Below are positions 1 to 17,578 of a stretch of DNA of 64,000 bases, one piece after another; within the stretch, counting starts at the first letter, position 1, and each line of letters begins with the position of its first letter. The notes beneath the pieces are model-generated. The model ran no database searches and was not told where the DNA came from. It was given only the letters and a program-made list of their open reading frames with translations. A program made the position numbers and the translations under genes. Source of the DNA: Solirubrobacterales bacterium (lineage in GTDB: Bacteria > Actinomycetota > Thermoleophilia > Solirubrobacterales > JBBDJG01); contig JBBDJG010000026.1 of NCBI GenBank assembly GCA_040880005.1, positions 3,432 to 67,431 on the forward strand, written 5' to 3'.

Positions 1-845
1 TCGATCCGCAGCCGCCCGGTCGCGAGGTCCACGTCGCGCCAGCGCAGCGCGAGCAGCTCGCCCACGCGCAGCCCGGCGAATACGAGCGTCGCCAGCATCG
101 CCCGGCGTGGAATGTGCGCGTGGTGCTCGTGCGCCTTCGCGTCCAGCTCACCGGCCGCGTCGAGCAGGGCGGCTATCTGCGCCGCCGTGTCGATAAACGA
201 GCGCCGCGGTGTGGACGCGCGCAGTCGCCTCCGCTTGCCGCTCGCCGGGTTGCGGCCGATCAGCTCGTACTCGACCGCCTGCTCCAATATCGACGCGAGC
301 AGCACCAGCGTCTTGTTTATCGACTCGTTCGAGAGCGGCCGACGCGCACGCTCTCGCCGCTCGCCGCGCTCGTCCACGTAGAACTCCGTCAGCGGCTCGC
401 CAGCGTCGGCGGCCGCCTTGATCGCGTCGCGCTCGCGGATCTTCGCTTGTCGGTAGGCATCGACCTCGCGCGGGCCGATCTGCGAGAGCCGGAACTTCGC
501 GAAGGCGGGGAGCAGGTGCCGCTCAAGTCGCCACGTGTAGTCGGTCCGTGTCCGGGGGCGCAGCTCGGCCCACTTCGCGTCGATCCACTCCTGCGCGAAC
601 GCCGCGAACGTCGGGTCCGGTTTCACGTCCGGCGGTCGCCGGTCGGGCGGTCGCCACTCCCCGCGCTCGATCTGCGCGAGCACATAGGCCAGCTCGGCCT
701 CGGCTCGCTCGCGGGTCCAGTCGGGCGCCCCGCCGAGTCCGATGTAGTGGCGCTGCCCGCCGTGGCGGACGCGCAGCCCGTAGAACGTGCCGGTCTTTCG
801 CTGGCGCTCGACGACCTGGCCGACGCGCTTATCCTTGTGCTGCAT
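1..845 (-). CDS. int: tyrosine recombinase / phage-type integrase, N-terminal ~281 codons (C-terminus lies left of the window)
   Basis: Absent from the ORF track because it runs off the window edge. My reverse-strand translation starts at ATG 845-843, with a GAGGG SD about 7 nt upstream: MQHKDKRVGQVVERQRKTGTFYGLRVRHGG...FAAFAQEWIDAKWAELRPRTRTDYTWRLERHLLPAFAKFRLSQIGPREVDAY...INKTLVLLASILEQAVEYELIGRNPA...RAMLATLVFAGLRVGELLALRWRDVDLATGRLRI. This shows a SAM-like core-binding N-domain followed by the box-I arginine region typical of tyrosine integrases. Confidence 0.85.
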   Translation of the reverse strand, partial: MQHKDKRVGQVVERQRKTGTFYGLRVRHGGQRHYIGLGGAPDWTRERAEAELAYVLAQIERGEWRPPDRRPPDVKPDPTFAAFAQEWIDAKWAELRPRTRTDYTWRLERHLLPAFAKFRLSQIGPREVDAYRQAKIRERDAIKAAADAGEPLTEFYVDERGERRERARRPLSNESINKTLVLLASILEQAVEYELIGRNPASGKRRRLRASTPRRSFIDTAAQIAALLDAAGELDAKAHEHHAHIPRRAMLATLVFAGLRVGELLALRWRDVDLATGRLRI

Positions 846-867
846 GGGAGTTCACCCTCCTATGCCG

Positions 868-904
868 GGCGGCGGCCGTGCAAGCGGTGCGCCGCCATTT
901 TTTT
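868..904 (+). terminator. GC-rich hairpin followed by a T7 tract (intrinsic-terminator-like, plus-strand orientation)
   Basis: GGCGGCG (868-874) pairs with CGCCGCC (890-896). Inner CCGT/GCGG pairs surround a GCAA loop, and TTTTTTT follows at 898-904. The orientation is opposite to the flanking minus-strand genes, so function is uncertain. Confidence 0.3.
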
Positions 905-917
905 ACGTGTGCACCTT

Positions 918-1115
918 TCATCCTACCGACTCCCTCGGCACTTTTGTACGCCTCTGACGGCCACGGTACTGCTCAAGCGACCCGTACCCCTCGATCGAGC
1001 GACCGGCTCTTAGGCGCCGCACCCGGCTCGCCTCGATCCGGTGCGCGGGTGAGCAGTAGCGAGCGTCGGCCCGCAGACCGTCGAGCGAGACGCCGCACAC
1101 GGGACACGGCCTCAC
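918..1115 (-). CDS. small zinc-ribbon-like protein (65 aa), island A
   Basis: These are the C-terminal 65 codons of track ORF 918..1349. GTG 1115-1113 overlaps the upstream stop as GTGA. The sequence VRPCPVCGVSLDGLRADARYCSPAHRIEASRVRR carries a CxxC...YCSxxHR motif. Confidence 0.55.
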   Translation of the reverse strand: MRPCPVCGVSLDGLRADARYCSPAHRIEASRVRRLRAGRSIEGYGSLEQYRGRQRRTKVPRESVG

Positions 1116-1297
1116 GACTCGACCTCCTCGTCCCAGGATGGCTCGGTCACGTCGAACCCGCACGCGACCTGCTCCTCGACGGTCAGGCAGCCCGGACAGC
1201 AGCGACCGTCCGGCGTCAGGTAGCTCTCCTCCGACGGGCGCCCGCAACGCGCGCACCGCTCGGGCCGTCCCATGTAGAAGCCCGGCCCCGGCGTCAC
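1112..1297 (-). CDS. small Cys-rich (zinc-ribbon-like) protein, 61 aa, island A
   Basis: Track ORF containing CARCG...CCPGC Cys pairs. It has a GTG start in a GTGA overlap with the upstream stop and ends in EEVES. Confidence 0.55.
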   Translation of the reverse strand: MTPGPGFYMGRPERCARCGRPSEESYLTPDGRCCPGCLTVEEQVACGFDVTEPSWDEEVES

Positions 1298-1887
1298 GAC
1301 TCGACCTCCTCACGGAGCAGCAGCCGCGGCGTCGGCGACTCGATCCCACGCGCGAACCGCGTCCGGACCTCGTCGTCGGTGCCGCGCAGCGGGTTGCCCG
1401 GTCCGGCCTCGACGAGGCCGTGTCGGACGTAGCGGTGCCACGCTCGAACGCGCGCCGCGTACTGCTCCTCGGCGGCTGTCAGCTCCTCGTATGCAGCCTG
1501 CAACCGATCGCGGGCCGGTCCGTCGAGCACCGCCTCCTCGCCCGCGAGGTCGGCGAAGTTCGCGCGCATGAACTCGTCGCGCTCGCTCTCGACCTCCGCG
1601 CGCGCGCGCTCCGCTCCGCGTGCTCTTGCCTGCCACGCCGGGTCCGCTGCGCGCTCGGCGGCCGTGCGCGCCGCCGTTGCGATCCTCGCCTCCAGTTTCG
1701 CGTCCGGCTCCTCCCCTGCTCCGACCGCCTCGTGGTAGCCCGCCAGGTCCGCCGCCGTCGCGCTCGCATCGCGGCGCGCGTGCGCTTGGTCCGTCTTGAC
1801 CTTGTGCTCGCGCGTCTGCGCCGCCTCGACGGCGGCGTCCAGCTCGGCGAGCCGGTCGGTCGCCTTACTCCTCGTCGTCGTCGGCAT
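1294..1887 (-). CDS. hypothetical Ala/Glu/Arg-rich (probably helical) protein, 197 aa, island A
   Basis: Track ORF starting at ATG 1887. The composition is coding-like and it ends in EEVES. I recognise no family. Confidence 0.6.
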   Translation of the reverse strand: MPTTTRSKATDRLAELDAAVEAAQTREHKVKTDQAHARRDASATAADLAGYHEAVGAGEEPDAKLEARIATAARTAAERAADPAWQARARGAERARAEVESERDEFMRANFADLAGEEAVLDGPARDRLQAAYEELTAAEEQYAARVRAWHRYVRHGLVEAGPGNPLRGTDDEVRTRFARGIESPTPRLLLREEVES

Positions 1888-2077
1888 CGTCGTCGCCTCC
1901 TCCCTTGTTCCGTCGTTGTTTGCGAATCCGACTCAACTCCTCCGGATCTTTCTCGGCGTAGGCGCGGCGCAAGCGCGCGCGAGGGTCGAACGTCTCCTCC
2001 TCGTCGCGCTCCTCCATCGCGCGCTTGTAACCGCGATACGTCGCCTCCTCGATCTGCTCCTCGGTCAGTTCAGGCAT
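1865..2077 (-). CDS. small acidic protein, 70 aa, island A
   Basis: Track ORF MPELTEEQIEEATYRGYKRAMEERDEEE...GGGDDDADDDEE, starting at ATG 2077. Confidence 0.55.
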   Translation of the reverse strand: MPELTEEQIEEATYRGYKRAMEERDEEETFDPRARLRRAYAEKDPEELSRIRKQRRNKGGGDDDADDDEE

Positions 2078-2237
2078 CCTCGTTTCCTTCCTCGATCGCG
2101 CCTCGGTCGTAGGTCGCCTGCCCGCCGCAGTCGATGCAGCGGACCACGACCACTCCCTCCGGGCGCGTGAACGTCTCCTCCCGTTCGGCCGGGCAGCCGT
2201 CCGCGTGTTCGCGGGCGGGTAGCTCTAGCTGCTTCAT
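2070..2237 (-). CDS. small Cys-containing protein, 55 aa, island A
   Basis: These are the C-terminal 55 codons of track ORF 2070..3011, from ATG 2237, which overlaps the TerL stop as ATGA. Sequence: MKQLELPAREHADGCPAEREETFTRPEGVVVVRCIDCGGQATYDRGAIEEGNEDA. Confidence 0.5.
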   Translation of the reverse strand: MKQLELPAREHADGCPAEREETFTRPEGVVVVRCIDCGGQATYDRGAIEEGNEDA

Positions 2238-3907
2238 CTGTTGCTCCCTTCGTCGTGTGTTGCCAATGCGACCGCGACGCTCGCGCGTGCGGCCTTCAAG
2301 TGTTTGGGCTCCGGCGCTGGCCGGTCCAGCTCGGGCGGAGTCGTCAGCTCGTCGCCGTTCACGCTCACCCACACGGGGCGCCGCGGCAGCGTCAGCCCGC
2401 CCGGCGTCTGCACGGTCGGCAGCTCGGCGACGCGCGGCGGGAGGGTCGGCTCGGGCAGCGGTCGCCGTGGCTCCGCCAGCTCGGCCAGGTAGTTCCGCCA
2501 CTCGCCGCGCGGCTTGTACGGGACCGACGCGAGCGCGAGCGCCATGGGGAGGTCGTCGTGTCCGGTGCTGGCCGCGATCTTCTCGCCGCCGTCCGGCGTC
2601 AGGTCCACGCGCAGCATCAGCAGCTCGCGGTGTAGCTCCTCCGCCGACGCGGGGAGCAGTAGGCGCCCCTGGTCGAGCAGCAGCCGCAGCGCCGAGAACG
2701 CCGCGGACTTCATCGGCGCGGTCGTGTGCGCTCCGACCTTGCGCGTGGCGAACCCTCGCGGCAACGCCCGCGACCACGGGCGCGCGCCGAGCTGTGGCTC
2801 CCACGGGCGCTCCTCGATCATCACGTAACGGCGCGCCTCGGCGCCGCCCGCGTCGGGCTCGCGCTCGGCCATGCGGCGCCATAGAAGCTGCGCGCACGGA
2901 CCTCCGAGTCCGTTCGTCTCGGCGACGAGCGTGTCGAAGTGCGCTGGGCTCGACCCGATCGACTCGACCACGTCCGGCAGCGGCTCCCCTGCTCGCCACC
3001 GCTCCGCGCAAGCGACCGCGAACACGCGCTCGCCGGGTATCGCGAGTCGCCCGACAGCGACGAGCGCGCTGCGATCGTTCACTTGCCCCCAGTCCACGCC
3101 GCCGAGCATCCGTGCGGGTCCGCGCAACTCCGCCAGCGACAGCGGCAGGTAGTCGGCCGTCGCGCGGTCGATCGCAGCGCGCGAGAACAGCAGGTCCGCG
3201 CCCGACGCGAACTCGGCCAGATACTCCGCGCCGAATCGGAGGTCGGTCATCGACTCGCGCGCGCCCTCGACCGCGGACGGAGTCAGCCAGGGCGCGTCGT
3301 CAGGACCGCCCGCGGCGCGCGCGACCCACACAAAAGTTTTCACGTGCTCCGATCCGCCTTCGCCACGTCGAGCGTGGTCGTAGAAAGCGCCGCTCGCCGT
3401 CGTCGCCGAGCTTGCGAGCACGATCCTCGCGTGCTCGCGCGCGGCAGTCACCGGGAACGCGGCGCCGAGCAGCAGGTCGTCGGGGATCAGGCTCGCCTCG
3501 TCGGCGATCAGCAAGTCGGCGCTCCAGCCACGGATCTGCTTCTCGGACGCGGGCACGGAGCGGACCTCGCTCCCGGTGGTCAGCGTCAGCAGCCCCGCCA
3601 GCTCGTCGGTCACGGAGTCGGCGAGCAGCTCGGAGCCGGTCGCGATCCGGCGGACCTCCGCGAGCAGGCGGCGGGCGGCGGCGTCGCCCGCGCTCACGAC
3701 GAGCACGCGCTGGCCGGGACGACGGAACGCCCACCAGCACGCGAGCACCGCGAGCGAGTACGACTTGCCGAGCTGGCGACCGGCGACGACCACGGTAACG
3801 CGAGTACGCAGCCCGAGCGCCGCGAGCTGCCAGTCCGTCAGCGCGTCGGGCGCGACGGTCGCGGCGAAGTAGCCGAGGTCGGACTTCAAGCGTTGGAAGT
3901 CAGGCAC
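2234..3907 (-). CDS. terL: phage terminase large subunit (TerL)-like ATPase/nuclease
   Basis: Part of track ORF 2234..4246. Motifs: Walker A VVVAGRQLGKS, Walker B DLLIADEA, and nuclease-domain acidic motifs GGVDWG, ETNGLG and GHDD. I place the start at GTG 3907, 8 nt inside the upstream gene; upstream of that, a different frame (3900..4370) looks like the real coding frame. Confidence 0.8.
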   Translation of the reverse strand: MPDFQRLKSDLGYFAATVAPDALTDWQLAALGLRTRVTVVVAGRQLGKSYSLAVLACWWAFRRPGQRVLVVSAGDAAARRLLAEVRRIATGSELLADSVTDELAGLLTLTTGSEVRSVPASEKQIRGWSADLLIADEASLIPDDLLLGAAFPVTAAREHARIVLASSATTASGAFYDHARRGEGGSEHVKTFVWVARAAGGPDDAPWLTPSAVEGARESMTDLRFGAEYLAEFASGADLLFSRAAIDRATADYLPLSLAELRGPARMLGGVDWGQVNDRSALVAVGRLAIPGERVFAVACAERWRAGEPLPDVVESIGSSPAHFDTLVAETNGLGGPCAQLLWRRMAEREPDAGGAEARRYVMIEERPWEPQLGARPWSRALPRGFATRKVGAHTTAPMKSAAFSALRLLLDQGRLLLPASAEELHRELLMLRVDLTPDGGEKIAASTGHDDLPMALALASVPYKPRGEWRNYLAELAEPRRPLPEPTLPPRVAELPTVQTPGGLTLPRRPVWVSVNGDELTTPPELDRPAPEPKHLKAARASVAVALATHDEGSNR

Positions 3908-4319
3908 CGTCGCTCCCCTCCTCGGGCAGCGCCGACAGCTTGCGCGCAAGGTCGAACCTCCGCGCCTGCCGGTGCTCGCGCCCGACCTCGGCCAGGACGC
4001 GCTCGGCGACGCTCGACCACTTTTCCAGCCGATCGACCACGTCGTACACGCGGCCTCGCTTGTCGCGGACGATGCTGTCCTGCTCGTCGAGCCACCGCGA
4101 CGCGAGGTCGATCCGTGCCAGCCGGTCGGCGAGCAGCGACAATCTCCGGTCATCGAGGTTCGGATAGTCGCGGCGCAGCTCGGCGACGTGGTACTCGCGC
4201 AGCGGCGCCAGCGCCAGCTCGGCCGTCGCGCCCGACTTGCGCGCACGAGACTCGCCCGGCTTGATCGGGTTCGGCGGCGGCTGGACGTTGCGGATCGTGC
4301 GGACGGGCGGGTTAGGCAC
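3900..4319 (-). CDS. putative terminase small subunit (by position and size)
   Basis: Track ORF 3900..4370. The GTG at 4319 gives 139 aa and an 8-nt overlap with the upstream stop. It is a helical protein (PLREYHVAELRRDYPNLDDRRLSLLADRLARIDLASRWL...) lying directly upstream of, and overlapping, TerL. I recognise no diagnostic motif. Confidence 0.45.
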   Translation of the reverse strand: MPNPPVRTIRNVQPPPNPIKPGESRARKSGATAELALAPLREYHVAELRRDYPNLDDRRLSLLADRLARIDLASRWLDEQDSIVRDKRGRVYDVVDRLEKWSSVAERVLAEVGREHRQARRFDLARKLSALPEEGSDGA

Positions 4320-4689
4320 GGCGGCCTCCGATCCGCAAAAGCGGCGGGTCCGTGGGCGCCCGCCGGGCACCCGGACCCGATCGCGGCGAGCGGACGTGGC
4401 CGGGCTCCGCTCGCGGCGCGGGTTTGAGCGCCCTCGACTCCCCGCTGCCGGAGCGAGAGGTCAGTCGCTCGACCACGTCCAGCTCGAACCGGAGCCGCGG
4501 TCGAGGCTTGCCGGTTCGACGGCCCTTCGCCCGATCGGAGACGGGCAGCTCGACCACGCCCAGGTCGGCGGCAATCTCATACACGTACGAGCGCGAGACG
4601 CCGAGCAGCTCGGCCACTTGCGCTGCGGTCGCGAGCCGATTATTTGCTCCCCGATTCGCGGGGGGCTTGTCCACGCGTCGCGCCGTCAC
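4312..4689 (-). CDS. helix-turn-helix DNA-binding protein (excisionase/AlpA/MerR-like HTH)
   Basis: Track ORF with a GTG start at 4689. The HTH segment is LATAAQVAELLGVSRSYVYEIAADLG. It is the first gene downstream of the iteron region. Confidence 0.6.
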   Translation of the reverse strand: MTARRVDKPPANRGANNRLATAAQVAELLGVSRSYVYEIAADLGVVELPVSDRAKGRRTGKPRPRLRFELDVVERLTSRSGSGESRALKPAPRAEPGHVRSPRSGPGARRAPTDPPLLRIGGRRA

Positions 4690-4705
4690 GCGTGTTCCCC
4701 GATCT

Positions 4706-4912
4706 GCAGGTTTGCAGGTTTCGCAGGTTTGTTTGTGCCCCGCGTCCTAGAGATTCTTTTACACACACACGTGTGTGTCGCAGGGCCTATGGCACCTATA
4801 ACCCCCCGTGAAACCTGCAAACCTGCGCGCGTGTCCGTTTTGCCCGTGTTCATGCGGGTTTGAGGGCCGCAGGTTTGGCCGCAGGTTTGCCGCAGGTTTC
4901 CGGCAAACCTGC
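4706..4912. repeat. iteron cluster / putative replication origin of island A
   Basis: The 8-mer GCAGGTTT occurs in direct orientation at 4706, 4714, 4723, 4869, 4881 and 4892. Its complement AAACCTGC occurs at 4811, 4819 and 4905, and a degenerate GCGGGTTT at 4854. The clusters flank a lower-GC core (about 56% by hand count over 4731-4810) containing the perfect palindrome ACACACACGTGTGTGT at 4763-4778. Confidence 0.65.
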
Positions 4913-6892
4913 GGCCACGCGCCAGAGCACGGCGCCGCCCCTCGACTCGACGCTCGCGCGCTGGACGTGCAGCTCGCGCTCCCCGTACCGGGTGCCCTCT
5001 TTTTTCGCGAGCGCCTTCCCGAGCTTGCGTGTGAAGCTCGACGAGTGCAGCGCGTCGGGCAACTCGCCGGGCAGCGTCTCGCGCAGCGCGAAGCCGAGCG
5101 CGTCGTCGTGCAACGCCTCGTCGAACTTCGCCGTGCTCACGGGCTCGTCGCCGAACCGCTCGTACCACTCCGCCAGGAACGCGGTCCACTCCGCGGCCTC
5201 CTCGTCGGCGTGCTCGTAGAACTCGGTCAGGTTCCGCAGGAACCCCTCGACGCCCGCCGCCGCGAGCACGCCGCCGAGCGCGTGCGCCCACTCCTCGAAA
5301 CCGCCGACGATCGGCGCGTCGGCCCGCGGGCGCTCGGCGACGATCCACGCGCGCCCGAGCGTCAGCGCCGCGGCGAGTAGCTCGCCCCGGTGCTCGACGA
5401 CCCACGGCAGCAGCGGGTCGTGTGCGAAACCGCTCCGCTGCCAGGGGCGCCCGACCTTTGCGTCGAGCCGGACGTGGTAGCAGCGCCGCGCCAGGTCGCC
5501 GCCGACGCGGACGTTATTCCCCGTCGCGAGCCACGTCGCACGCTGCGGTACGGTCAGCGTCTCGGAGCGGCCGAGGATCCGGTCCGTGACGACGCCGGTC
5601 GTAAGCGCGGACGCGAGCGACGGTGAGGCGAGCGGAGCCTCGACGTTGTCGATATTGACGATCGACGGCCCGGCAGCGAGCACCGCGAGGATCGTCTTTC
5701 GCCACTCCTCCTCGCGCGTCGGCGGCGCCATCATCGCGGCTCCGCGCCCGGTCGCGACCGCAGCGACGACGCCCGCGAGCAGTCCCTTCCCCGTCCCGGC
5801 CTTCGTGGAGTCGAGCAGCGCGAGCGGCACCGGCCCGTCGATCGCCGGCCGCAGGATCGGCGTCAGCACCAGCGCGAGCGCGTTCGCCCGGCTCGCTTGC
5901 GAGTCGAACGGGAACTCGGCGAGCGGCCCGGCAAGCAGCGCCGCAGCGTCGGCGACTTGCGCGGCGCTCGGGTGCTCGGGCACGACGGGCAGCGCGAAGT
6001 CCGGTGGCGGCGCGTACACGAGCCGAGTCGCGGTGTCATAGCCCGGCGTCGCTAACACGCTTCCGTCCGCGCGCAGCACGGGCGACTCGACCACGCCGAC
6101 GAGCGGCGGGAACGGTAGGTCGCCGCGGGTCAGCAGGTCGCGCACGAGGTCGTCGGGCGCGCGAACGTGACCGAACCCGCCCTCCGCCTCGCTGCCGGTG
6201 TTCGCGACTCGCGTTAAGCGCCCGCGCATCGTCGCCTCCCGCAGGTGCTCGATTCGGTGGCGCCCGTGCTCGTCGGAGCGAACGTGGGCCGGAACGCCGC
6301 CGTGAACGTACAGAGCGGGCGGATCGTTCGCCCCGTGCAGAGCGTGCAGCGCGTCGTCGGACACGTCGCGAAGCGGACGCCCGTTTACGATCACGCGCGG
6401 CAGTCCGCCGTCGTCGGCGTCGTAGCGTTCGCGGCGCTCTCGCTCGCGGCGTTCCTTACGCTTCCCGTTGATCGCGCGCTCTAGCGCCTCGACCTCCCGC
6501 GCCGTGGTCGCCTTCCGCAGCGCCAGCAGTCCCGCCTCCCACGCCGCGCGGTCCTTGTCCGCGAGGCTCGCCAGCTCGTCGAGCGCGTCGCCGTCCGCGA
6601 GCGCGCCGGTCACGTCGCCGGACTCCGCGAGGCTGGCGAGCGTCGAGCGCGCGGGTGCGAGGTAGGGGCGCGCTTTCCCGCTCGCCTTATCGGCCGCGAC
6701 CTCGTACAGCTCGCGCAGCTCGGCGGCGTCGGGGTCGTCGCGGTCGGCGGCGTCGAGGATCGGACCGACCTCGCGGACCTCGTCGCGCAGGTCGTCGAGC
6801 GCACGCTCGACCTCCTCGTCGCCGTTCGCCTTCAGCGTCGCCGTGGCCGCCGCGTTGAGTCGGTCGAGGCACTCTTGGAGCGTCGCGCTCAC
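4850..6892 (-). CDS. putative replication protein: P4/D5-type (SF3) helicase-like P-loop NTPase, 680 aa
   Basis: Track ORF with a GTG start at 6892. It has a P-loop LLDSTKAGTGKGLL (deviant GKG) and a Walker-B-like IVNIDNVE. The segment LTTGVVTDRILGRSETLTVPQRATWLATGNNVRV resembles the primase C-terminal/SF3 helicase layout of P4-family proteins. The iterons begin inside its 3' end. Confidence 0.55.
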   Translation of the reverse strand: MSATLQECLDRLNAAATATLKANGDEEVERALDDLRDEVREVGPILDAADRDDPDAAELRELYEVAADKASGKARPYLAPARSTLASLAESGDVTGALADGDALDELASLADKDRAAWEAGLLALRKATTAREVEALERAINGKRKERRERERRERYDADDGGLPRVIVNGRPLRDVSDDALHALHGANDPPALYVHGGVPAHVRSDEHGRHRIEHLREATMRGRLTRVANTGSEAEGGFGHVRAPDDLVRDLLTRGDLPFPPLVGVVESPVLRADGSVLATPGYDTATRLVYAPPPDFALPVVPEHPSAAQVADAAALLAGPLAEFPFDSQASRANALALVLTPILRPAIDGPVPLALLDSTKAGTGKGLLAGVVAAVATGRGAAMMAPPTREEEWRKTILAVLAAGPSIVNIDNVEAPLASPSLASALTTGVVTDRILGRSETLTVPQRATWLATGNNVRVGGDLARRCYHVRLDAKVGRPWQRSGFAHDPLLPWVVEHRGELLAAALTLGRAWIVAERPRADAPIVGGFEEWAHALGGVLAAAGVEGFLRNLTEFYEHADEEAAEWTAFLAEWYERFGDEPVSTAKFDEALHDDALGFALRETLPGELPDALHSSSFTRKLGKALAKKEGTRYGERELHVQRASVESRGGAVLWRVAAGLPETCGKPAAKPAALKPA

Positions 6893-7143
6893 GGGCGCTC
6901 CCCGTTCAGCTTGACTTCAACGCACCCGCGCTCCGCGGCCACGGTCGCGCGACCGTCCTCGACGAGCGCGTCGATCGACGCGTCCACTTGTCCGGCCGTT
7001 AGCCCGCGCTCGCGGAGGTCGAGTAGGTTCGGCCGCGTGAGCGACAGCGACCCACCGCCGCGCTCGACGAGCTGGCGGAACGCCTCAGCGCGCGCGTCGC
7101 GCGTCGGTCGGCGCGCCTTCACGGTCGCTCCCCTCGTCGCCAC
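6889..7143 (-). CDS. hypothetical protein, 84 aa, island A
   Basis: Track ORF. Its stop region overlaps the Rep start as GTGA. I recognise no family. Confidence 0.5.
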   Translation of the reverse strand: MATRGATVKARRPTRDARAEAFRQLVERGGGSLSLTRPNLLDLRERGLTAGQVDASIDALVEDGRATVAAERGCVEVKLNGERP

Positions 7144-7655
7144 GGGGCGGCGACGCCAACGGGGAACTGACCAGCCCCATACGCCACCGCCCCGTCGCGA
7201 CGGTCGCGAAAGTGCCCGGCTAGGCCGGGCGGCTCGGGTTCGGCGCTATCGTCGGAGGAGTCGCCGCCGGGACTGCCGCGCGACGCGCTCGCGGTCCGGC
7301 GGCCGCGCGGCCGGCCGCCGTTCAGGCGCCGATCGCGGCGCGGAGCACGTACAACGGCGCGAGTGCGGACTTCGCACGGTCGCCGCTCGACGATCGGTCG
7401 CGGGGCGGTGCCCGCGTAGGCGCTCCGGATACGTTCGGACGCGCGGTCCTGCGCGGTGACACGTGGCTCCATGACGAGACGAGCGCGAACCTCGGCCAGC
7501 TTCTCCTCGACCATCCACCGCTCGTCGTCGGCGACTTGCCCGGAGTCGAGCAGGTGTCTCAGGTAGTCGCGCTCGGCGCGGAGCTTCTCGTCGAGCGGCA
7601 CGGGTCGCAAGTCGCCGAGCGCCTCGTCGATCACATACTGCGGGAGAGTCTGCAT
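7119..7655 (-). CDS. hypothetical protein, island A (first gene of the leftward gene chain)
   Basis: C-terminal part of track ORF 7119..7868 from ATG 7655, with an alternative GTG at 7670. The N-terminus MQTLPQYVIDEALGDLRPVPLDEKLRAERDYLRHLLDSGQVADDERWMVEEKLAEVRARL is protein-like. The C-terminal third is low-complexity, so the true end is uncertain. Confidence 0.4.
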   Translation of the reverse strand: MQTLPQYVIDEALGDLRPVPLDEKLRAERDYLRHLLDSGQVADDERWMVEEKLAEVRARLVMEPRVTAQDRASERIRSAYAGTAPRPIVERRPCEVRTRAVVRAPRRDRRLNGGRPRGRRTASASRGSPGGDSSDDSAEPEPPGLAGHFRDRRDGAVAYGAGQFPVGVAAPWRRGERP

Positions 7656-7832
7656 CGTCTCGTCGATCACTTCGCCAGCTTTCCGGGGTCGAGGTTTCGA
7701 CCCGCGCACATTGTTATCAGACGCAGCGGCGCTAAACGGAAAGCGCCGCCCCGACGTTCGGTCGAGACGGCGCGCGAAGTCGTGCGAGACGACAGCGCGA
7801 GTATGACACGAGGCTCGGCGGTGGCCGCGTCT

Positions 7833-7898
7833 GGGCACCCGGCCGTTCCGGGTGCCCGAATCGGCCACAATCGGACCGAATCCGACCTAATCCGCCAG
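7833..7898. promoter_or_regulatory. hairpin plus four phased 10-bp repeats near the right end of island A (candidate arm-type recombinase/RDF binding sites)
   Basis: The hairpin GGGCACCC-9 nt-GGGTGCCC spans 7833-7857. It is followed by AATCGGCCAC, AATCGGACCG, AATCCGACCT and AATCCGCCAG, starting at 7859, 7869, 7879 and 7889. Confidence 0.4.
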
Positions 7899-7956
7899 CT
7901 CACCGGAGCCTCCGTTTTCCGCGTCGCGCTCGGCGTCTAGCGGGTTTTCGTCGTCA

Positions 7957-8009
7957 CCCTCACCACGCTTGCCATGCAGAAGGTCGAGGGTTCGAGTCCC
8001 TTCATCCGC
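7957..8009 (+). repeat. att-like direct repeat copy 1 (attR of island A); tRNA-Gly(GCC)-like 3' part
   Basis: 7964-8009 is identical over 46 bp to 9308-9353, and the match extends to 53 bp with 2 mismatches. It contains TTGCCAT (an anticodon-loop-like context around GCC), AGGTC, a T-arm GAGGG-TTCGAGT-CCCTT, and the acceptor 3' strand CATCCGC followed by T. No D-arm or 5' acceptor strand lies upstream, so it is not a complete tRNA. Confidence 0.7.
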
Positions 8010-8052
8010 TTCCCGCTCTGATGCGGGATCGCCCGGCTCAACAGCGATCCGA

Positions 8053-9153
8053 ATGGCACACACAAGCGCGACGGGCAATAATGGGGTCGTGTCTGTGGGT
8101 CGTCTCAGAGCTGGTGTGTTGGTGACCGGAGCGTTGCTTCTCGCGCCTTCCACGCCCGCCTCGGGGGCGGTAACCGTAGGTAACAGCTTGAGCAACTCGG
8201 CAGACTCCGGCTCTTGCTGGACTCCCGGCGCAGGTGGAACGAGCTCGTGCACGCTCGCACAGGTGAGCCTGGACGCAGGGAGCCCCGCCAGCGGCGGCCT
8301 GACCTCTCCGCTTGATGGTGTCGCAGTCAAGTGGCGGCTCAAGCTCGGGGATCTCTCGAACGTGACCTCGGCGAGCGCCAAGCTGAGGGTGATCCGCGGC
8401 AACCGAGGGGTGTCGAGCAGCCAGGTCCAGACCTTGGTCAGCAACGGAACCCACCAATTCGACACGAGGCAGCCCGTAAAGATTGGTGACCGGTTTGGCA
8501 TCGACACGACTCTTTCCAGTCCCTTCATCGGTATCTCCCTTCAGATCATGCACTCCGCCAGCCCCAGCCCCAGCATGAACCCATACCACTACTGGACGCC
8601 ACCGCTTGCAGACGATGAGAGCCGATCGCCGACCGCAACGTACGGCGGGGAGCTACTCCTAAACGCCGACATCGAGCCCGACGCCGATGGCGACGGGTTC
8701 GGCGACGAGACCCAGGACCAGTGTCCGGCAAGCGCGTCCAGCCAGAGCCCTTGCCCACCCGCACCTCCCCTGTCCGGCCCGGCGGTATCAGACCGAGCTG
8801 CACCCGCCGGACTTGCGAGCTTCGCCAGGACGCTGAAGCTGCGCTCTGCGTTGAGACGCGGCCTTAACGGCAAGGTCAGTTCGAACGAACCGGCGGACAT
8901 CAGCGGCAGCGCCGAGGTCGCCGCCCGGCTTGGGCGCAGGTTCGGCCTCAAGTCCGCGCGACCAGTGGTGGTCGCGAGGGGCAGGGCGTCGCTTGCGGCG
9001 GCAGGCGTCGCGAACCTCCGCCTCAGCTTCACGAAGAAGGCGAGGCGCAAGCTGAGGCGTGCGCGCAAGGTTGGGCTCACCTTGCGGATTAACCTGACGG
9101 ACAAGGCGAGCAACACCGCCAAGTTCACCCGCAAGGCAACGCTCAGGCGCTGA
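8053..9153 (+). CDS. secreted hypothetical protein with a D-rich Ca-binding-like motif
   Basis: Track ORF 7969..9153 trimmed to ATG 8053. The signal-peptide-like N-terminus is MAHTSATGNNGVVSVGRLRAGVLVTGALLLAPSTPASGA. It contains the motif DIEPDADGDGFGDETQDQC and a basic C-terminal domain. Confidence 0.7.
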   Translation: MAHTSATGNNGVVSVGRLRAGVLVTGALLLAPSTPASGAVTVGNSLSNSADSGSCWTPGAGGTSSCTLAQVSLDAGSPASGGLTSPLDGVAVKWRLKLGDLSNVTSASAKLRVIRGNRGVSSSQVQTLVSNGTHQFDTRQPVKIGDRFGIDTTLSSPFIGISLQIMHSASPSPSMNPYHYWTPPLADDESRSPTATYGGELLLNADIEPDADGDGFGDETQDQCPASASSQSPCPPAPPLSGPAVSDRAAPAGLASFARTLKLRSALRRGLNGKVSSNEPADISGSAEVAARLGRRFGLKSARPVVVARGRASLAAAGVANLRLSFTKKARRKLRRARKVGLTLRINLTDKASNTAKFTRKATLRR

Positions 9154-9176
9154 CGCCGGATCCCGAGGTTCGCATT

Positions 9177-9240
9177 GGGCACCAGCTTTATTCTGGTGCC
9201 CAACCTTCCCCACGCTTCCTGTAACTTCACCTAACTTCTA
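9177..9240. promoter_or_regulatory. hairpin (possible terminator of 8053..9153) plus four phased short repeats near the right end of islet B
   Basis: The hairpin GGGCACCAG-7 nt-CTGGTGCCC spans 9177-9201. It is followed by AACCTTCC (9202), ACGCTTCC (9212), AACTTCAC (9223) and AACTTCTA (9233). The layout is collinear with 7833-7898 at an offset of exactly 1344 bp. Confidence 0.4.
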
Positions 9241-9300
9241 GGGGCGTCGGAGTCCGCAGCTCCCCCGCTACGGCGCTTGTTTCCACCGTTGTTGGACTTC

Positions 9301-9353
9301 CCCTCGACACGCTTGCCATGCAGAAGGTCGAGGGTTCGAGTCCCTTCATCCGC
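9301..9353 (+). repeat. att-like direct repeat copy 2
   Basis: 9308-9353 is identical to 7964-8009, and the CCCTC at 9301-9305 also matches 7957-7961. Confidence 0.7.
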
Positions 9354-9359
9354 GTGTGT

Positions 9360-9437
9360 GATGTCTCGCGACATCTGTCTCCTATGTACCGAGACAGGTG
9401 TCGCCTATGTGGTGAGACCAGACACCTTCATCCGCTT
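9360..9437. other. three consecutive hairpins with embedded CCTATGTnnnGAGAC direct repeats, ending in a 13-bp third att/tRNA-3'-end fragment
   Basis: The three hairpins are GATGTC/GACATC (9360-9375), CTGTCTC/GAGACAG (9375-9397) and GGTGTC/GACACC (9397-9426). The direct repeats lie at 9381-9395 and 9404-9418. CCTTCATCCGCTT at 9425-9437 equals 7999-8011. Confidence 0.5.
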
Positions 9438-9461
9438 GCGCCGTCGCCGGAGGCGCCGCAG

Positions 9462-9917
9462 TCACCTCATCACGATCCTGGCGCTGTGCTCGACTCGCCG
9501 CCGCAGCTCCTCCAGCGAGCGACGTAGGTTGGTGCCGACGATCGGCGCGGCCAAGCGCTCGGCGATCGCGCCGAGCAGCCCTCCCTCGGTGTGATACCCG
9601 AGGCGCAGCGTCACGTTCGTGCCGCCCCCGTCGCGCTCGTGCAGCCGCCAGCGCCCACGCTGGTCGATGCCGAGCACGCTCGTCCAGGCGATCTCGTAGG
9701 GCTCGTCGAACTCGACGATCTCGATCATGCCGCCGATCTCGGCCGAGCCGACCTTCATGCGGGTCGCGTAGCGAGCGCCGAGGCCGGTGCGCTGCTCCCC
9801 CTGGACCTCCCAGCTCGTGATGCCCTCCATAAAGGACTCGTAGTTCTCCGGGCGCGCGATGAAGGCCCATACCTGGCCGATCGGAGCGTCCACGGTGGTG
9901 CGTTTCTCGACTCGCAT
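9462..9917 (-). CDS. SRPBCC (polyketide cyclase/dehydrase-like, Bet v1 fold) family protein
   Basis: 151 aa. MRVEKRTTVDAPIGQVWAFIARPENYESFMEGI... shows the typical SRPBCC N-terminal signature. Confidence 0.75.
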   Translation of the reverse strand: MRVEKRTTVDAPIGQVWAFIARPENYESFMEGITSWEVQGEQRTGLGARYATRMKVGSAEIGGMIEIVEFDEPYEIAWTSVLGIDQRGRWRLHERDGGGTNVTLRLGYHTEGGLLGAIAERLAAPIVGTNLRRSLEELRRRVEHSARIVMR

Positions 9918-9926
9918 CGCGCCCGC

Positions 9927-10877
9927 TCAGCCGACGACCGGCAGACGCCTCTCGGCCGCCAGCCCCTCGAGTGTCCTTTGCATCCTGCCCACGATCTCCT
10001 CGTGGACCTCGTCCGCGTCCGGCTGGTCGCCGAACTCGGCCTGGAGGTCGATCGGCTCCAGCACCTGGAGCGTGATCTTTGCGGGCAGCGGTATGTGCCC
10101 CGCCAGGTCGCCGACGTTCAGTCCCCAGGGAAGCGCGATCGAGATCGGCAGCACCTTCAGGCGAAGCAACCTGTCGAGCCGCAGCAGCGTGGCGAGCCGC
10201 TCGCCACGGCTCAAGAACAGCGACGTTTCCTGGCCGCCGATCGCCACCACCGGCACGACGGGCACGCGCTTGTCGATCGCCAATTCGACAAACCCCTTGC
10301 GGCCGCCGAAATCGATCTTCGACGACTCCCAGGACGGACGGTGCACCTCGTAGTCCCCGCCCGGATACACGAGCAGCGCCGAGCCCGAGTCGAGCGCACG
10401 CCGCGCGTTCTCCCATGAGGCGGCGATCGTTCCGCCCTTGCGCAGGTGGCGCAGCGGCGGCAGTGCCAGCACGAGGTTGTGCGCGAGCTGGAAGAAGCGC
10501 CGCTCGACTCCGAAGTAGCTCGAGAAAGCGAGCACGAAGATGAAGGTGTCCGGCGCCATGTTGCCGCCGGAGTGATTGCCGACCAGCAGCACCGGCCCGC
10601 GCGGTGGGATGCGCTCCAGCCCGCGCACCTCGGCCCGGAAGTAGAAGCTCGCGAGCAGCCACAGCCAGGGCAGGTTGTCGCGCAGGTAGTCCGGGTCGCG
10701 CTCGTGCAGGTCAGCCTTCGGGATCTGGCGCCGCACCTGCTCCACAATCGCGCCGCTGAGGCGGGACAGCATTCCGGCGGGGGCCCGCTCGTTGGGTTGC
10801 TCGGAAGGACGGCCGCCGTTACGGGCGATCGTGCGAGGTGCGTCCCGCTGCATGACCCTTGACCGTGAATCGCTCAT
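9927..10877 (-). CDS. lysophospholipid/glycerolipid acyltransferase (PlsC-like) family protein
   Basis: 316 aa. Motifs: PVLLVGNHSGG, LVYPGGDYE and GFVELAIDKRVPVVPVVAIGG. Confidence 0.7.
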   Translation of the reverse strand: MSDSRSRVMQRDAPRTIARNGGRPSEQPNERAPAGMLSRLSGAIVEQVRRQIPKADLHERDPDYLRDNLPWLWLLASFYFRAEVRGLERIPPRGPVLLVGNHSGGNMAPDTFIFVLAFSSYFGVERRFFQLAHNLVLALPPLRHLRKGGTIAASWENARRALDSGSALLVYPGGDYEVHRPSWESSKIDFGGRKGFVELAIDKRVPVVPVVAIGGQETSLFLSRGERLATLLRLDRLLRLKVLPISIALPWGLNVGDLAGHIPLPAKITLQVLEPIDLQAEFGDQPDADEVHEEIVGRMQRTLEGLAAERRLPVVG

Positions 10878-10929
10878 GAAAATCCCTCTGCCGTGACTCG
10901 ATCCCCGCGATCAGCCTACTGCGGCAGCG

Positions 10930-12156
10930 TCAGGAGTCAACGAGTCCCGCACCGAGATCGGCCGACGCGACCGGCTCCACGGTGGCGAGGAACTCGGCGA
11001 TCGCGGCGTGGAGCTCGCGCGGGCGCTCGATCTGCGGGATGTGGCCGCAGTCCAACTCGACGTGACGGGCCGACGGCAACACCCGCTCGACGTGCTTGGC
11101 GAACTCGATCGGCGCCAGGCGATCATGTGTTCCCCAGATGAACAGGCACTCGGGGGCGAGTCTGCGCAGGCTGGTCCAAAAGCCCCGATCGCCGTGGGGC
11201 TCGTCGAGGTAGATGCTGCGCGCCGCCGCGTAGAAGGCGGCGCGCCCACGAGGGTCGGTGTAAGTGCGGATGAACTCGTCGATCCCGGCCGTGCCCCACG
11301 ACGAGGACGCTCCCGGTATCAGGCGCCTGACGACGGCCTCCACGACCGGCCGCGGCGTGACCTGGATCAGGCCCAGCTCGGGTCGTATCCAGCGCAGATA
11401 GGGCGCCCAGCGGCGCTCGCGCAGCCACGCCATCGCCGGCGTCATCAGCACGAGGCCGATCACACGATGCGGTCGGCGCATGCCGAACTCGAGCGCGACG
11501 CGGCCTCCCATACTGTGACCGATCACGTGCGCACGTTCGATCTCGAGCGCGTCGAGCAGCGCAGACACGCCGCGTGCCTGAAAGTCGGGCGTGTAGGAGG
11601 CGCCGACCGGCTTGTCCGAGTCGCCGAAGCCGAGCAGATCAACCGCGATCATTCTGTACGAGGGGGCGAGCGCCGCCACCGTGGGCAAGAAGGACCACTT
11701 CGTCCCGCCGAGGCCATGCAGCATGATCACGGGCTCTCCGATGCCGGCTTCGAGCGTCGAGAAGTCGCCCATCCTCGTCGTGATGCGCCGGAAGCGCAGC
11801 TGTCCAGGGCCGGTGGCCCGAGCCGTTGCCGCCAGGAACCCGACCGCGAGATGCAGGTTGTGGCGCACGCGCAGGCGCCCGGCGCCGAACGCGCCCAGAC
11901 CCCCCGACAGGTCGTCGGCGATCTCGTCCCATGTCGAGCGATCCGCGCTCAGAAGTGCGGCGGGCCGCTCGGAGCCGGATCGAGACAGAACCGCGCGCTT
12001 GCGATCGATCGCGACGTTCCAGCCCTCGTCGGGTCCGGTCGCGAGCATGACCACGGCCCGCTGCGCCGCAAGGTCGAACCGCTCGTGGTCGAAGCGGTCG
12101 ACGAGCGTCCGCAGGCTGGCCGGAATCGCCGAATCGGCGCGAATCGCCGTGCTCAT
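10930..12156 (-). CDS. SCP2 sterol-carrier-like domain fused to an alpha/beta hydrolase
   Basis: Track ORF 10930..12381 trimmed to ATG 12156. The N-terminal domain is SCP2-like (LLSADRSTWDEIADDLSGGLGAFGAGRLRVRHNLHLAVGFLA). The hydrolase part has VIMLHGLGG and the nucleophile elbow GHSMGG. Confidence 0.75.
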   Translation of the reverse strand: MSTAIRADSAIPASLRTLVDRFDHERFDLAAQRAVVMLATGPDEGWNVAIDRKRAVLSRSGSERPAALLSADRSTWDEIADDLSGGLGAFGAGRLRVRHNLHLAVGFLAATARATGPGQLRFRRITTRMGDFSTLEAGIGEPVIMLHGLGGTKWSFLPTVAALAPSYRMIAVDLLGFGDSDKPVGASYTPDFQARGVSALLDALEIERAHVIGHSMGGRVALEFGMRRPHRVIGLVLMTPAMAWLRERRWAPYLRWIRPELGLIQVTPRPVVEAVVRRLIPGASSSWGTAGIDEFIRTYTDPRGRAAFYAAARSIYLDEPHGDRGFWTSLRRLAPECLFIWGTHDRLAPIEFAKHVERVLPSARHVELDCGHIPQIERPRELHAAIAEFLATVEPVASADLGAGLVDS

Positions 12157-12344
12157 GTGTGCGAGCTCGTGGCAGCGAGGGGTGTGAGCACGTTCGTCAC
12201 ATGTTGCCCATGCCGACGGCCTGACCGGCAGCGGGGTCACCGCATGGTACCGGCCCGCCAGAGCCGAAAAATCTAAGGCTCGGCGCCTGGGCGCCGATAT
12301 GAGTCCTTGCTGGGCTTTCAAGACCCGGATGCCAGATTGCCCGA

Positions 12345-14441: not shown

Positions 14442-15559
14442 TAGTTCCCGATCGCCTGCTCCAATGCCCACAACAGCCGGTCGGTCGCGGCGCCGTCGCG
14501 GATCGCTGCGCGAACGTGGTCGCCGTCGCCGAGCGGCCCCCCGTGCGCGACCAGCACCTGGCCCTGCTCGAGCCGTTGCGCGAGCCGTTCGCCGTCCATG
14601 CCCTCGACGTGGAGCCAGATGAAGTTTGCCTGTGTCGGCGGCGCGCTCAGGCCCAGTCGTTCAAGACCCTCGCGTAGTCGCCCGCGCTCCGCTATGACCG
14701 CCTCGCGCCTGCGCAACGCTTCGCGCGTGCCGGCTCCCAGCGCCTGCGCGACCGCGGCCTGGGTGAGCGCGTTGACGCCAAGCATTGGCGCCAGCGCCGC
14801 GAGCAAATCGGCACCCTGCGATGACCCGACCACGTAGCCGCCGCGCAGCCCCGAGAGCCCGTAGATCTTCGAGAAGGTGCGAAATACGAGCAGGCGTGGA
14901 AACGCCTCCACCAGCCGCAGGCACGAATCCTCTTCCTCTTCGTCCTGGAAGTGCACGTAGGCTTCGTCGAGCAGCACGTGGACGTGCGCCGGCAGCGCGC
15001 TGAGCAGGCTGCCGAGCTGCTCCGAGCGCAGGTACGTCCCTGTCGGATCGTTGGGGTTGCAGATCGTCACGATGCGCGTGCGCGGCCCGACCGCCGCCAG
15101 CACGCCGTCCGCGTCGATGCCACCGTCGCGCAACTCGACCGGCACGAACGGCGCCCGCGCCCGAGCGGTGATCGACGCATACAACGAATACGACGGCCAA
15201 GGCGTGACCAGCTCGTCGCCCTCCCCGAGCAAGAGGTACGCGGCCGTCTGGAGCAACTCAGCGGAGCCGTTGCCGAACACGATCTGGGCGGCCTTGATGT
15301 AGTGGCGCTCGGCAAGCATGCGCCGGATGTCGGTCGCCTCACGGTCCGGGTAGCTGTTCAGCCGTCCGCGCGCCTGAAACACCGACGCGCCAACGACCTC
15401 CGCGTCGGGTAGGTCGGTCCACTCGGTTCCGGAGAGGTCCAGCACCGGAACCTGCACTAGCGCAAGCGCCTTCTCCTCGGCACGTCGATCGCGTAGCCGC
15501 TCGTTGACCTCCGACTCGCTCATGTCGTCGAACTGCCGGTAGTAGTCGAGCAGGCCCAT
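14438..15559 (-). CDS. hisC: histidinol-phosphate/aromatic aminotransferase family (class II PLP) enzyme
   Basis: 373 aa. Motifs: NPNDPTG, DEAYVHF and the PLP-lysine motif FRTFSKIYGLSGLRGGY. Confidence 0.8.
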   Translation of the reverse strand: MGLLDYYRQFDDMSESEVNERLRDRRAEEKALALVQVPVLDLSGTEWTDLPDAEVVGASVFQARGRLNSYPDREATDIRRMLAERHYIKAAQIVFGNGSAELLQTAAYLLLGEGDELVTPWPSYSLYASITARARAPFVPVELRDGGIDADGVLAAVGPRTRIVTICNPNDPTGTYLRSEQLGSLLSALPAHVHVLLDEAYVHFQDEEEEDSCLRLVEAFPRLLVFRTFSKIYGLSGLRGGYVVGSSQGADLLAALAPMLGVNALTQAAVAQALGAGTREALRRREAVIAERGRLREGLERLGLSAPPTQANFIWLHVEGMDGERLAQRLEQGQVLVAHGGPLGDGDHVRAAIRDGAATDRLLWALEQAIGNY

Positions 15560-15581
15560 GACGTCTTCCTCGGCTCGGCGC

Positions 15582-16058
15582 CTACTGGCCGGGCGTTACC
15601 GATGAGCCGGGGCCGTTGATGATCACGAACCAAAACATGAACGCAGACACGGCGATCGCGCCGCTGATCACGAAGATGCGGTTCAGCATGCCTTCCTTCT
15701 GCTCGTGCCCCGCTGCGCGACGAACGAGCTTCCAGGCGTGATCGAGCCGCATCGCGAGGCCGATCGTCCCGACCATCGTGACCATCATCCCGATGAACGC
15801 GGTCGCCAGTGCCAGCTCGATCGAGTCGGTTCGATGCTGGATGCGCGAAGCCACCCACAGCCAGCCGGCCGGCTGCGGGCCCCACAGCGTGACCAGCAAG
15901 ATCGTTTCCACGACCAGAATCGCGCCCGCGAGGATCGAGTCGATTCGGCGGCGCTTGCGATCGCCGGGTTCCGGCTTGCCGCGGTAGCGCACCGGGCCCG
16001 TCCCGGGACGGCGCCCGATGAACAGCCCGCCGGTGTTGGTGGGGTCGTTCTCAGCCAT
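15582..16058 (-). CDS. small integral membrane protein, unknown function
   Basis: Track ORF 15582..16154 trimmed to ATG 16058 (MAENDPTNTGGLF...). It contains several hydrophobic helices. Confidence 0.6.
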   Translation of the reverse strand: MAENDPTNTGGLFIGRRPGTGPVRYRGKPEPGDRKRRRIDSILAGAILVVETILLVTLWGPQPAGWLWVASRIQHRTDSIELALATAFIGMMVTMVGTIGLAMRLDHAWKLVRRAAGHEQKEGMLNRIFVISGAIAVSAFMFWFVIINGPGSSVTPGQ

Positions 16059-16131
16059 CAGCTTCAGATTCAGATCGGTGCGGTGCCTCGCCAAGTGTAG
16101 GCGAGCGCCTGCGCACGCAAGGCAGCGAACG

Positions 16132-16776: not shown

Positions 16777-16785
16777 GCTCCTAGA

Positions 16786-17556: not shown

Positions 17557-17578
17557 GAAAACGACCGGCGGGCGAACG

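Follow-up and report, generated by a model that had tools for sequence, protein, structure and literature searches.

The stretch of DNA analysed here is a 64-kb window (contig JBBDJG010000026.1, positions 3,432 to 67,431) of a metagenome-assembled genome (MAG) of a Solirubrobacterales bacterium, and its first 8,010 positions make up the right-hand part (8.0 kb) of an element of 8,505 bp that has integrated into a tRNA-Gly(GCC) gene. The displaced tRNA 3′ end at the right att site (attR, 7966-8010) is identical, in 44 of 44 positions, to nucleotides 31-74 of a related MAG's tRNA-Gly(GCC) (L007), and a direct repeat of 53 nt with 96% identity is formed by positions 7957-8009 and 9301-9353. The attL counterpart maps about 500 bp to the left of the window edge, as seen on a 5.4-kb Logan contig (L001). 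This contig encodes the same large terminase subunit (TerL), continues beyond the left edge of the window and terminates in the same tRNA 3′ end, in reverse complement, which indicates that the intact tRNA-Gly gene adjoins the integrase gene (int) some 0.5 kb to the left of the window and that the element measures 8,505 bp from att to att. No intact tRNA is found by ARAGORN within the 64-kb window because its att copies are 3′ fragments only. An integrase together with tRNA-Gly-derived att repeats of 44-53 nt, spaced by 8,505 bp, corresponds to what delimits phage-inducible chromosomal islands (PICIs). The initial annotation had placed the island from at least the window edge to an att end at 8009; the latter boundary stands, whereas the former has to be moved about 0.5 kb further left. 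Twelve co-directional genes, all on the minus strand, run from the left window edge to position 7670 (Table 1), in the order that had been proposed, as frame plots of the GC content at third codon positions (GC3) and start-codon analysis agree in indicating, with no pseudogene-like frame breaks in the core genes. The GC content is about 72% in 1-7500, compared with about 62-70% in the flanking DNA.

The element carries genes for both terminase subunits next to an integrase and a replication module. Its TerL is identical to protein WDZ37_05500, encoded on a 91-kb contig of a Solirubrobacterales MAG, and matches two PHROG families of terminase large subunits (phrog_2, 5.3e-27; phrog_7579, 9.3e-27), whereas the Pfam model Terminase_6N stays just below its cut-off (19.5 vs 22 bits). 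A profile built from 24 homologs retrieved from the PDB the ATPase domain of T4 gp17 (2.5e-15), the TerL ATPase of Thermus phage P74-26 (8e-7) and the nuclease domains of G20c/P74-26 (7e-5 to 2e-4), and the residues of both activities are invariant in the 24 proteins: K48 of Walker A, D136/E137 of Walker B, and the acidic nuclease residues D272, E330 and D451/D452. By its sequence, the protein is therefore a TerL of the T4 gp17-like/Terminase_6 family, with an ASCE ATPase and an RNase-H-like nuclease, as first proposed. The protein encoded directly upstream, which had been described as being of the size of a small terminase subunit (TerS), has no direct Pfam match, and its profile gave only chance matches against the PDB. 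Its subfamily nevertheless aligns with the proteins found at the TerS position of related elements (hhalign probability 96.6%, E 6.5e-10), and these match Pfam Terminase_4 in 8 of 16 cases and the Terminase_6 small subunit in 10 of 16, so the 139-aa protein is a TerS homolog. Members of this family lie directly upstream of TerL in 29 loci.

On the other hand, searches with Pfam, PHROGs and NCBIfam gave no capsid, portal, protease, tail or lysis family in the seven open reading frames (ORFs) that remain when int, Rep, TerL, TerS and the helix-turn-helix (HTH) protein are set aside. Seven of the 12 proteins are without family assignment. The remaining ORFs amount to only about 710 codons in pieces of at most 197 aa, too little to accommodate both an HK97-type capsid protein and a portal, and the head, tail and lysis modules of a complete prophage are not found in the 12 genes and 8.5 kb of the element. 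The absence of portal and capsid proteins among the small ORFs, put forward in the initial annotation, is thus borne out by the three databases, and the model of the largest of them, of 197 aa, is all-helical. Relatives of the island extend this result. In nine att-bounded relatives, the 64 proteins scanned, of at least 60 aa and other than integrase and TerL, comprised no capsid, portal, protease or lysis family; the families present were TerS, primase, helicase, replication initiator and RusA, HTH and ribbon-helix-helix proteins, one HNH protein, one tape measure protein and, as cargo, a GNAT protein and an S26 peptidase. Likewise, among 77 proteins of at least 190 aa encoded near TerL in 17 further loci, no capsid or portal protein occurs in the Pfam matches listed (25 of 54 families), which reach E ~5e-15, so that weaker capsid or portal matches are possible in those loci. 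No full structural module between TerL and int, of the kind that an ordinary prophage would have, was therefore seen in the relatives scanned, and two of them (L023 and L028) have int right after TerL, with nothing in between. As a separate observation, a distant relative from Pseudonocardia (L033) encodes directly after TerL, at 1828-2991, an SPP1 gp7-like minor capsid protein (Phage_min_cap2, 3e-47), the sole head-associated protein seen across the family.

Table 1. Genes and sites of the island, with positions in the 64-kb window.
Feature	Position	Strand	Remarks
Tyrosine integrase, partial (N-terminal 281 codons)	3-845	-	~0.5 kb more beyond the left edge
65-aa Cys-rich protein	918-1115	-	directly upstream of int; zinc-ribbon-like CPxCG...YCSxxH motif
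61-aa Cys-rich protein	1112-1297	-	coding frame from GC3 plot
197-aa all-helical coiled-coil protein	1294-1887	-	largest of five small proteins
70-aa acidic/basic protein	1865-2077	-	from start-codon analysis and GC3 plot
55-aa Cys-containing protein	2070-2237	-	start overlaps TerL stop
TerL, 557 aa	2234-3907	-	ATPase domain and RNase-H-like nuclease domain
TerS homolog, 139 aa (156 aa if start at 4370)	3900-4319	-	directly upstream of TerL
HTH protein, excisionase/AlpA-like	4312-4689	-	weak assignment
Iteron-type origin (predicted)	4706-4912	.	9 copies of AAACCTGC, from rep 3′ end to HTH gene
Rep, D5-like SF3 helicase (from model), 680 aa	4850-6892	-	helical N-terminal region
84-aa protein	6889-7143	-	stop overlaps rep start; homolog in L017
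ORF of ~180 aa adjoining attR	7119-7670	-	weak coding signal; only N-terminal part looks coding
attR	7957-8010	+	7966-8010, displaced tRNA-Gly(GCC) 3′ 44 nt, from anticodon stem to discriminator base

The replication module consists of Rep and a predicted origin. Rep matches phrog_10537 (1e-74) and phrog_19930, annotated as 'DNA polymerase/primase' (5e-41), although its sequence gave no Pfam, NCBIfam or PDB match, and neither Pfam nor the comparison of its domains with those of homologs revealed a recognisable primase domain. Its C-terminal ~500 aa recur in other proteins, whose N-terminal part is a Prim-Pol, Toprim, RepB-primase or PolA domain, and the motifs GTGKG, IVNIDNVE and ATGNN can be read in the sequence. 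An AlphaFold2 (AF2) model (pLDDT 89) has the SaPI5 primase-helicase (7ola, 9e-7) as its best PDB fold, followed by PriRep1 (7pds), the PrimPol of African swine fever virus (ASFV), E5 of monkeypox virus (MPXV) and D5 of vaccinia virus, and the NrS-1 helicase. By these fold matches, Rep is a D5-like helicase of superfamily 3 (SF3), in line with the P-loop, P4-type helicase originally read from its sequence.

The iterons that had been described beside rep were also recovered. Within 207 bp (4706-4912), the 8-mer AAACCTGC is present in nine copies, compared with 0.73 copies expected in the whole window, and none of 100 shuffles reached 10 copies. The copies form three clusters (three direct; two inverted; three direct and one inverted), two of which flank an AT-rich spacer (4725-4799, GC 48-50%) containing the 18-nt palindrome ACACACACGTGTGTGTGT, whereas the third overlaps the last codons of rep. 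In the origins of the Staphylococcus aureus pathogenicity islands (SaPIs), sets of iterons flank an AT-rich region 3′ of rep, and by analogy the iterons and spacer of the island have the layout of a SaPI-type origin. Similar clusters, with five or six copies of an element-specific 8-mer within 100-150 bp, are located at the 3′ end, or shortly behind it, of the gene for the AAA_25 helicase in L015 (15340-15475), L023 (8301-8445) and L028 (8417-8515). In L015, the replication module is located downstream of TerL and the iterons have moved along with it, which favours an origin over a site for TerS. A role of the iterons as the packaging (pac) site of TerS was for this reason rejected as first choice, since they follow the relocated helicase gene and not terS. 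The only Rfam match of the island, mir-2056 (28.5 bits vs a gathering threshold of 100), is a false positive caused by a hairpin of inverted iterons (4874-4919).

The island belongs to a family of related elements. At least 180 TerL homologs were found at E<=1e-5, many of them on contigs of 8-10 kb, and those with a source name come from Solirubrobacterales, Thermoleophilia or unclassified Actinomycetota. A genome scan for TerL gave 60 loci, in 15 of which direct repeats of 19-50 nt, comprising a tRNA 3′ end, lie on both sides of the gene and define att-bounded elements. These relatives occupy tRNA genes for Met, Arg, Cys, Val, Lys, Glu and Gly and mostly measure 8.9-11.5 kb: L004 (9,474 bp) and L026 (~9,066 bp) at tRNA-Met, L008 (9,949 bp) at tRNA-Arg, L009 (9,830 bp) and L011 (8,870 bp) at tRNA-Cys, L015 (9,943 bp) at tRNA-Val, L020 (9,761 bp) at tRNA-Lys, L024 (9,722 bp) at tRNA-Glu and L028 (10,271 bp) at tRNA-Gly. 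Larger ones are L023 (11.1 kb), L013 (11.5 kb) and, with 13-17 kb, L014, L025, L030 and L031. Cultured strains with members of the family include Nocardioides antri BN140041 (L029), Gordonia jacobaea mv1 (L027), Pseudonocardia parietis DSM 45256 (L031) and Thermoleophilia bacterium SCSIO 60948, whose TerL is 53% identical. A core order is kept, namely replication module, HTH gene, TerS, TerL, small proteins, to which a helical protein of ~200 aa may be added, and int. Within it, the replication module is exchangeable (an SF3 helicase in some elements; in L002, L004 and L069, a primase and an AAA_25 helicase), whereas TerS, TerL and int are conserved. Among the compact relatives the TerL proteins are only 45-60% identical. 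This recurring compact architecture, with intact genes at many tRNA sites, indicates a conserved family of elements and not a decayed prophage.

Some relatives carry additional genes. In L014, L016, L025 and L029, a tape measure protein encoded downstream of TerL is the only recognisable virion gene (L014:13125-15116, PhageMin_Tail 1.4e-21; L016:13311-17444, L025:15483-18278 and L029:14354-17995, PHROG tape-measure families with 5.9e-54, 8.9e-90 and 7.9e-18, respectively). The tape measure gene directly follows that of a coiled-coil protein in L025 and L029, and in L016 there is downstream of it a 368-aa protein whose sequence suggests a beta-helix. On the other hand, the distant relatives L030, L031 (Pseudonocardia parietis DSM 45256; 2768-17923) and L033 (Pseudonocardia), whose TerL is ~34-37% identical, combine a satellite-type module (int, an XRE-type HTH protein, a PrimPol-AAA_25 replicase, TerS and TerL) with a conjugation-type module on the opposite strand (FtsK/SpoIIIE and DUF2637). 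In L030 and L031 both modules lie inside one tRNA-att-bounded element of 13-15 kb. Judging from their genes, these three loci look like hybrids of a terminase-bearing satellite and an actinomycete integrative and conjugative element (AICE).

Comparison with the known systems places the island between several of them. It resembles the SaPI-type PICIs in being a small, site-specifically integrating island that encodes a tyrosine integrase and a TerS of its own but lacks capsid genes, as well as in its SF3 helicase of the Pri-Rep type, for which 7ola is the best fold, and in the iterons flanking an AT-rich spacer beside rep. It differs from them in having a full TerL, whereas classical PICIs lack this gene and use that of the helper, in having all its genes on one strand with no divergent master repressor recognised, in its host, a Solirubrobacterales actinobacterium, and in its size of 8.5 kb, compared with roughly 10-15 kb for PICIs. 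With the capsid-forming PICIs (cfPICIs) it shares both terminase subunits, along with int and a Rep of the primase/replicase type, but cfPICIs also encode a major capsid protein, a protease, a portal and head-tail connectors, none of which was detected in the island or in the relatives scanned, and for which 8.5 kb leaves no room. As terL has been reported to distinguish cfPICIs, which also carry capsid and connector genes, from PICIs (PMC10085698), the island is outside the definition of PICIs because it has TerL and outside that of cfPICIs because it is devoid of head genes, in line with the initial statement that its gene set fits no described class of satellites.

Other satellites and mobile elements share fewer features. 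The P4-like satellites have in common with the island an integrase, a D5-like helicase as replication protein, a small genome and, as we infer for the island, dependence on helper capsids; the helical capsid-size factor Sid of P4 could have an analogue in the 197-aa coiled-coil protein. P4 lacks a terminase and uses that of P2 through shared cos sites, whereas the island carries its own. No homologs of Psu, Delta or Sid turned up among the Pfam and PHROGs matches, which did not include a targeted search. The EPIPs of Mycolicibacterium encode a serine integrase, TerS, head-to-tail adaptor and stopper, scaffolding protein, major capsid protein and tape measure, with TerL not listed (PMC12822802). 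They are likewise actinobacterial, of about 11 kb and TerS-encoding, and a tape measure is also present in the relatives L014, L016, L025 and L029, but the window element has a tyrosine integrase, TerL and none of the EPIP head genes. Tycheposons and VEIMEs carry terS or a major capsid protein only. AICEs are similar in their Actinomycetota hosts, their size of 9-15 kb and their tRNA-integrating int/xis-like/rep organisation, to which L030, L031 and L033 add FtsK/SpoIIIE and DUF2637; family scans for an AICE-type FtsK/SpoIIIE translocase gave no match in the window element and found it only in the distant relatives L031 and L033. Among the open-access papers and preprints searched, no report pairs 'AICE' with 'terminase' or 'satellite' with 'both terminase subunits', an absence that is not proof of novelty. 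Within the same literature, the combination of int, rep/ori, TerS and TerL without capsid genes is not reported for known phage satellites.

A SaPI-like Rep and origin, an integrase, TerS and TerL, the lack of detected virion genes and the conserved architecture all point to a satellite-type element. The island is thus probably a phage satellite that is equipped with a whole terminase of its own and takes procapsids, tails and lysis from a helper, a reading held here with reasonable, not high, confidence, in which helper dependence, the packaging into foreign procapsids and the role of the coiled-coil protein are deduced from the gene content. Its cycle would start with the excision of the element from tRNA-Gly by the tyrosine integrase, possibly aided by the HTH protein. 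Rep would then bind the AAACCTGC iterons and melt the AT-rich spacer, and replication would follow by means of the polymerases and primases of either the host or the helper. TerS would recognise a packaging site on the element, and TerL would cut its DNA and pump it into the procapsids of a co-infecting or co-resident helper phage. Finally, the tails and lysis functions of the helper would complete the transfer. A genome of 8.5 kb implies either that several units are packed per normal head, through headful packing of concatemers, or that the head size is reduced; in the latter case, the 197-aa coiled coil encoded downstream of TerL would be the best candidate for the size factor.

Several observations weigh against this reading. 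The initial annotation had suggested looking for a co-resident helper prophage, and none is visible by eye in the other 55 kb of the window, of which positions 9.5-64 kb read as core chromosome (ffh, ftsY, smc, recG, a ribosomal protein and riboflavin genes). The closest TerL of a cultured phage found by tblastn in INPHARED, that of the Thermus phage Riverbug, shows 32% identity over 57% of the query, and a scan of IMG/VR with the TerL profile gave no close relative but only matches of 21-32% identity, so that no candidate helper with a compatible portal is known for this TerL clade. Neither a repressor/anti-repressor sensing module nor a divergently transcribed repressor was recognised in the island. 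The FtsK/SpoIIIE and DUF2637 genes of the distant relatives also raise the possibility that the terminase is not the sole route of transfer, or does not serve transfer. As to free circular forms, the metagenome contigs L002, L005 and L073, of 8-10 kb, do not overlap at their ends, and the element-length contig L069, which occurs in 6 samples, has both its start and its end within the tRNA-Cys att repeat, with an overlap of 18 nt, which may reflect either a circle or a break in the assembly at the repeats.

Among the alternatives, a role of the terminase pair mainly in anti-phage interference or defence, by cutting or sequestering the DNA or procapsids of phages and with transfer of the element itself secondary or absent, is unlikely, in spite of some points in its favour. 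Interference with helper packaging is common in satellites, such as PLE, which is reported to manipulate the terminase of ICP1 (PMC11417361), the conserved nuclease and ATPase residues of TerL would suit either role, and neither INPHARED, IMG/VR nor the rest of the window yielded a helper. The pair is, however, always linked to int, rep/ori and att in elements of a narrow size range, as expected from a self-mobilising unit, and interference and self-packaging are not mutually exclusive.

It is quite unlikely that TerS and TerL have a function outside virions, for example the processing of replication concatemers, with the element moving by some other route as AICEs do. The Pseudonocardia loci L030, L031 and L033, in which the terminase pair coexists with FtsK/SpoIIIE and DUF2637, would be in keeping with such a function, but family scans found no FtsK-like or relaxase gene in the window element and its close relatives. 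Moreover, no TerL enzyme is known to act other than as a capsid-packaging motor, and the tape measure or SPP1 gp7-like minor capsid protein of some relatives points to virions. The origin of the island as a decaying remnant of an ordinary prophage is very improbable: a large deletion could leave TerS and TerL beside int and rep, and the second att copy 1.3 kb away (9301-9353) indicates that remnants accumulate at the locus, but the same compact and intact architecture occurs at many tRNA sites with TerL only 45-60% identical, the catalytic residues of TerL are invariant, the core genes have no frame breaks, and a complete head module between TerL and int is absent from all the relatives scanned. 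An autonomous minimal virus, or an island forming its own capsid, with a shell and portal too divergent to be recognised, for which the seven unassigned proteins might leave some scope, is scarcely credible given the ~710 codons available, a largest ORF (197 aa) whose model is all-helical and not HK97-like, the lack of any ORF near portal size and the empty interval between TerL and int in L023 and L028.

A satellite with its own terminase would fill a gap among the known strategies. Known satellites either borrow the terminase of the helper (P4, PICMI), retarget it by TerS or Rpp-like factors (PICI, PLE) or bring along both head and packaging functions (cfPICI), and a family supplying only the motor, if real, would sit between the borrowing or retargeting types and the cfPICIs. 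The specificity of packaging would then be fully encoded by the satellite, so that contact with the helper could be confined to that of TerL with the portal, and the promiscuity of TerL-portal docking would become testable. It would also extend satellites into an abundant and poorly studied order of soil actinobacteria. Taken further, it is conceivable, though still tentative, that the soil Actinomycetota, Solirubrobacterales and beyond, harbour a widespread and undescribed class of satellites with their own TerS and TerL, of a clade absent from cultured phages and IMG/VR, that take only procapsids, tails and lysis from their helpers and whose variants have added a tape measure or an AICE-type FtsK module, the latter giving two routes of transfer. 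A family of this kind would also provide, in the TerL/TerS clade beside int and rep, a marker for finding such elements, which current satellite finders and virus-detection pipelines appear to miss, since there is no close relative in IMG/VR. The relatives bearing FtsK or tape measure genes suggest in turn an exchange of packaging modules between mobile elements of different types.

With regard to the other genes, the integrase matches phrog_1 (2.5e-32) and the Pfam families Phage_int_SAM_3, Phage_int_M and Phage_integrase, and on contig L001 its ORF, of at least 455 codons, contains the catalytic region HSLRR...GH...Y and extends into the 3′ end of tRNA-Gly. The HTH protein, initially considered as Xis-like, keeps this assignment by its position and by weak matches, all below cut-off (HTH_17, 1.3e-3; TIGR01764 excisionase, 1.7e-3; phrog_66, 1.5e-3), but not as a firm family assignment; the proteins encoded at the same position in relatives match HTH_17 clearly. 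The AF2 model of the 197-aa protein (pLDDT 83) consists of three long helices, and the fold search with it gave nothing at E<=0.001 and only coiled coils, including tape-measure fragments at E ~0.01, while a PDB sequence search with its family gave no match. This family is made up of stand-alone proteins (228 cluster representatives at E<=1e-3, nearly all of 190-250 aa), and homologs are encoded downstream of TerL in L002, L004, L005 and L012. A function as scaffold or capsid-size factor would be no more than a guess.

Among the smallest proteins, those of 65 aa (with a GTG start preceded by GAGGAGG) and 61 aa have no match in Pfam, PHROGs or NCBIfam, and that of 55 aa matches phrog_25934 weakly (2.3e-4). 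In six loci, that of the window among them, TerL is immediately followed by a conserved short Cys-containing protein of 55-66 aa, perhaps an accessory terminase factor. Some relatives (L002 and L004, e.g. L004:9379-10008) have a longer TerS, with a CxxC...CxxC zinc ribbon at its end. At the other end of the island, the ORF of ~180 aa gave no match in a PDB sequence search, and its distal two thirds (7143-7470) show ambiguous codon-position GC, so that this part could be non-coding or have a regulatory role. A hairpin on the minus strand (7743-7773), upstream of the first gene of the island, has a 13-bp GC-rich stem followed by a T-rich tail.

Finally, the second copy of the tRNA-Gly 3′ end (9301-9353) is similar to attR (96% identity) also in 10 nt on the element side. 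The 1.3-kb segment between both copies (8010-9353), of lower GC content (62-67%), contains a single ORF on the plus strand (7969/8047-9153), which has a signal-peptide-like N-terminus and no Pfam match. By its appearance, the segment is a remaining end, or the cargo, of an earlier element that was integrated in tandem at the same tRNA.

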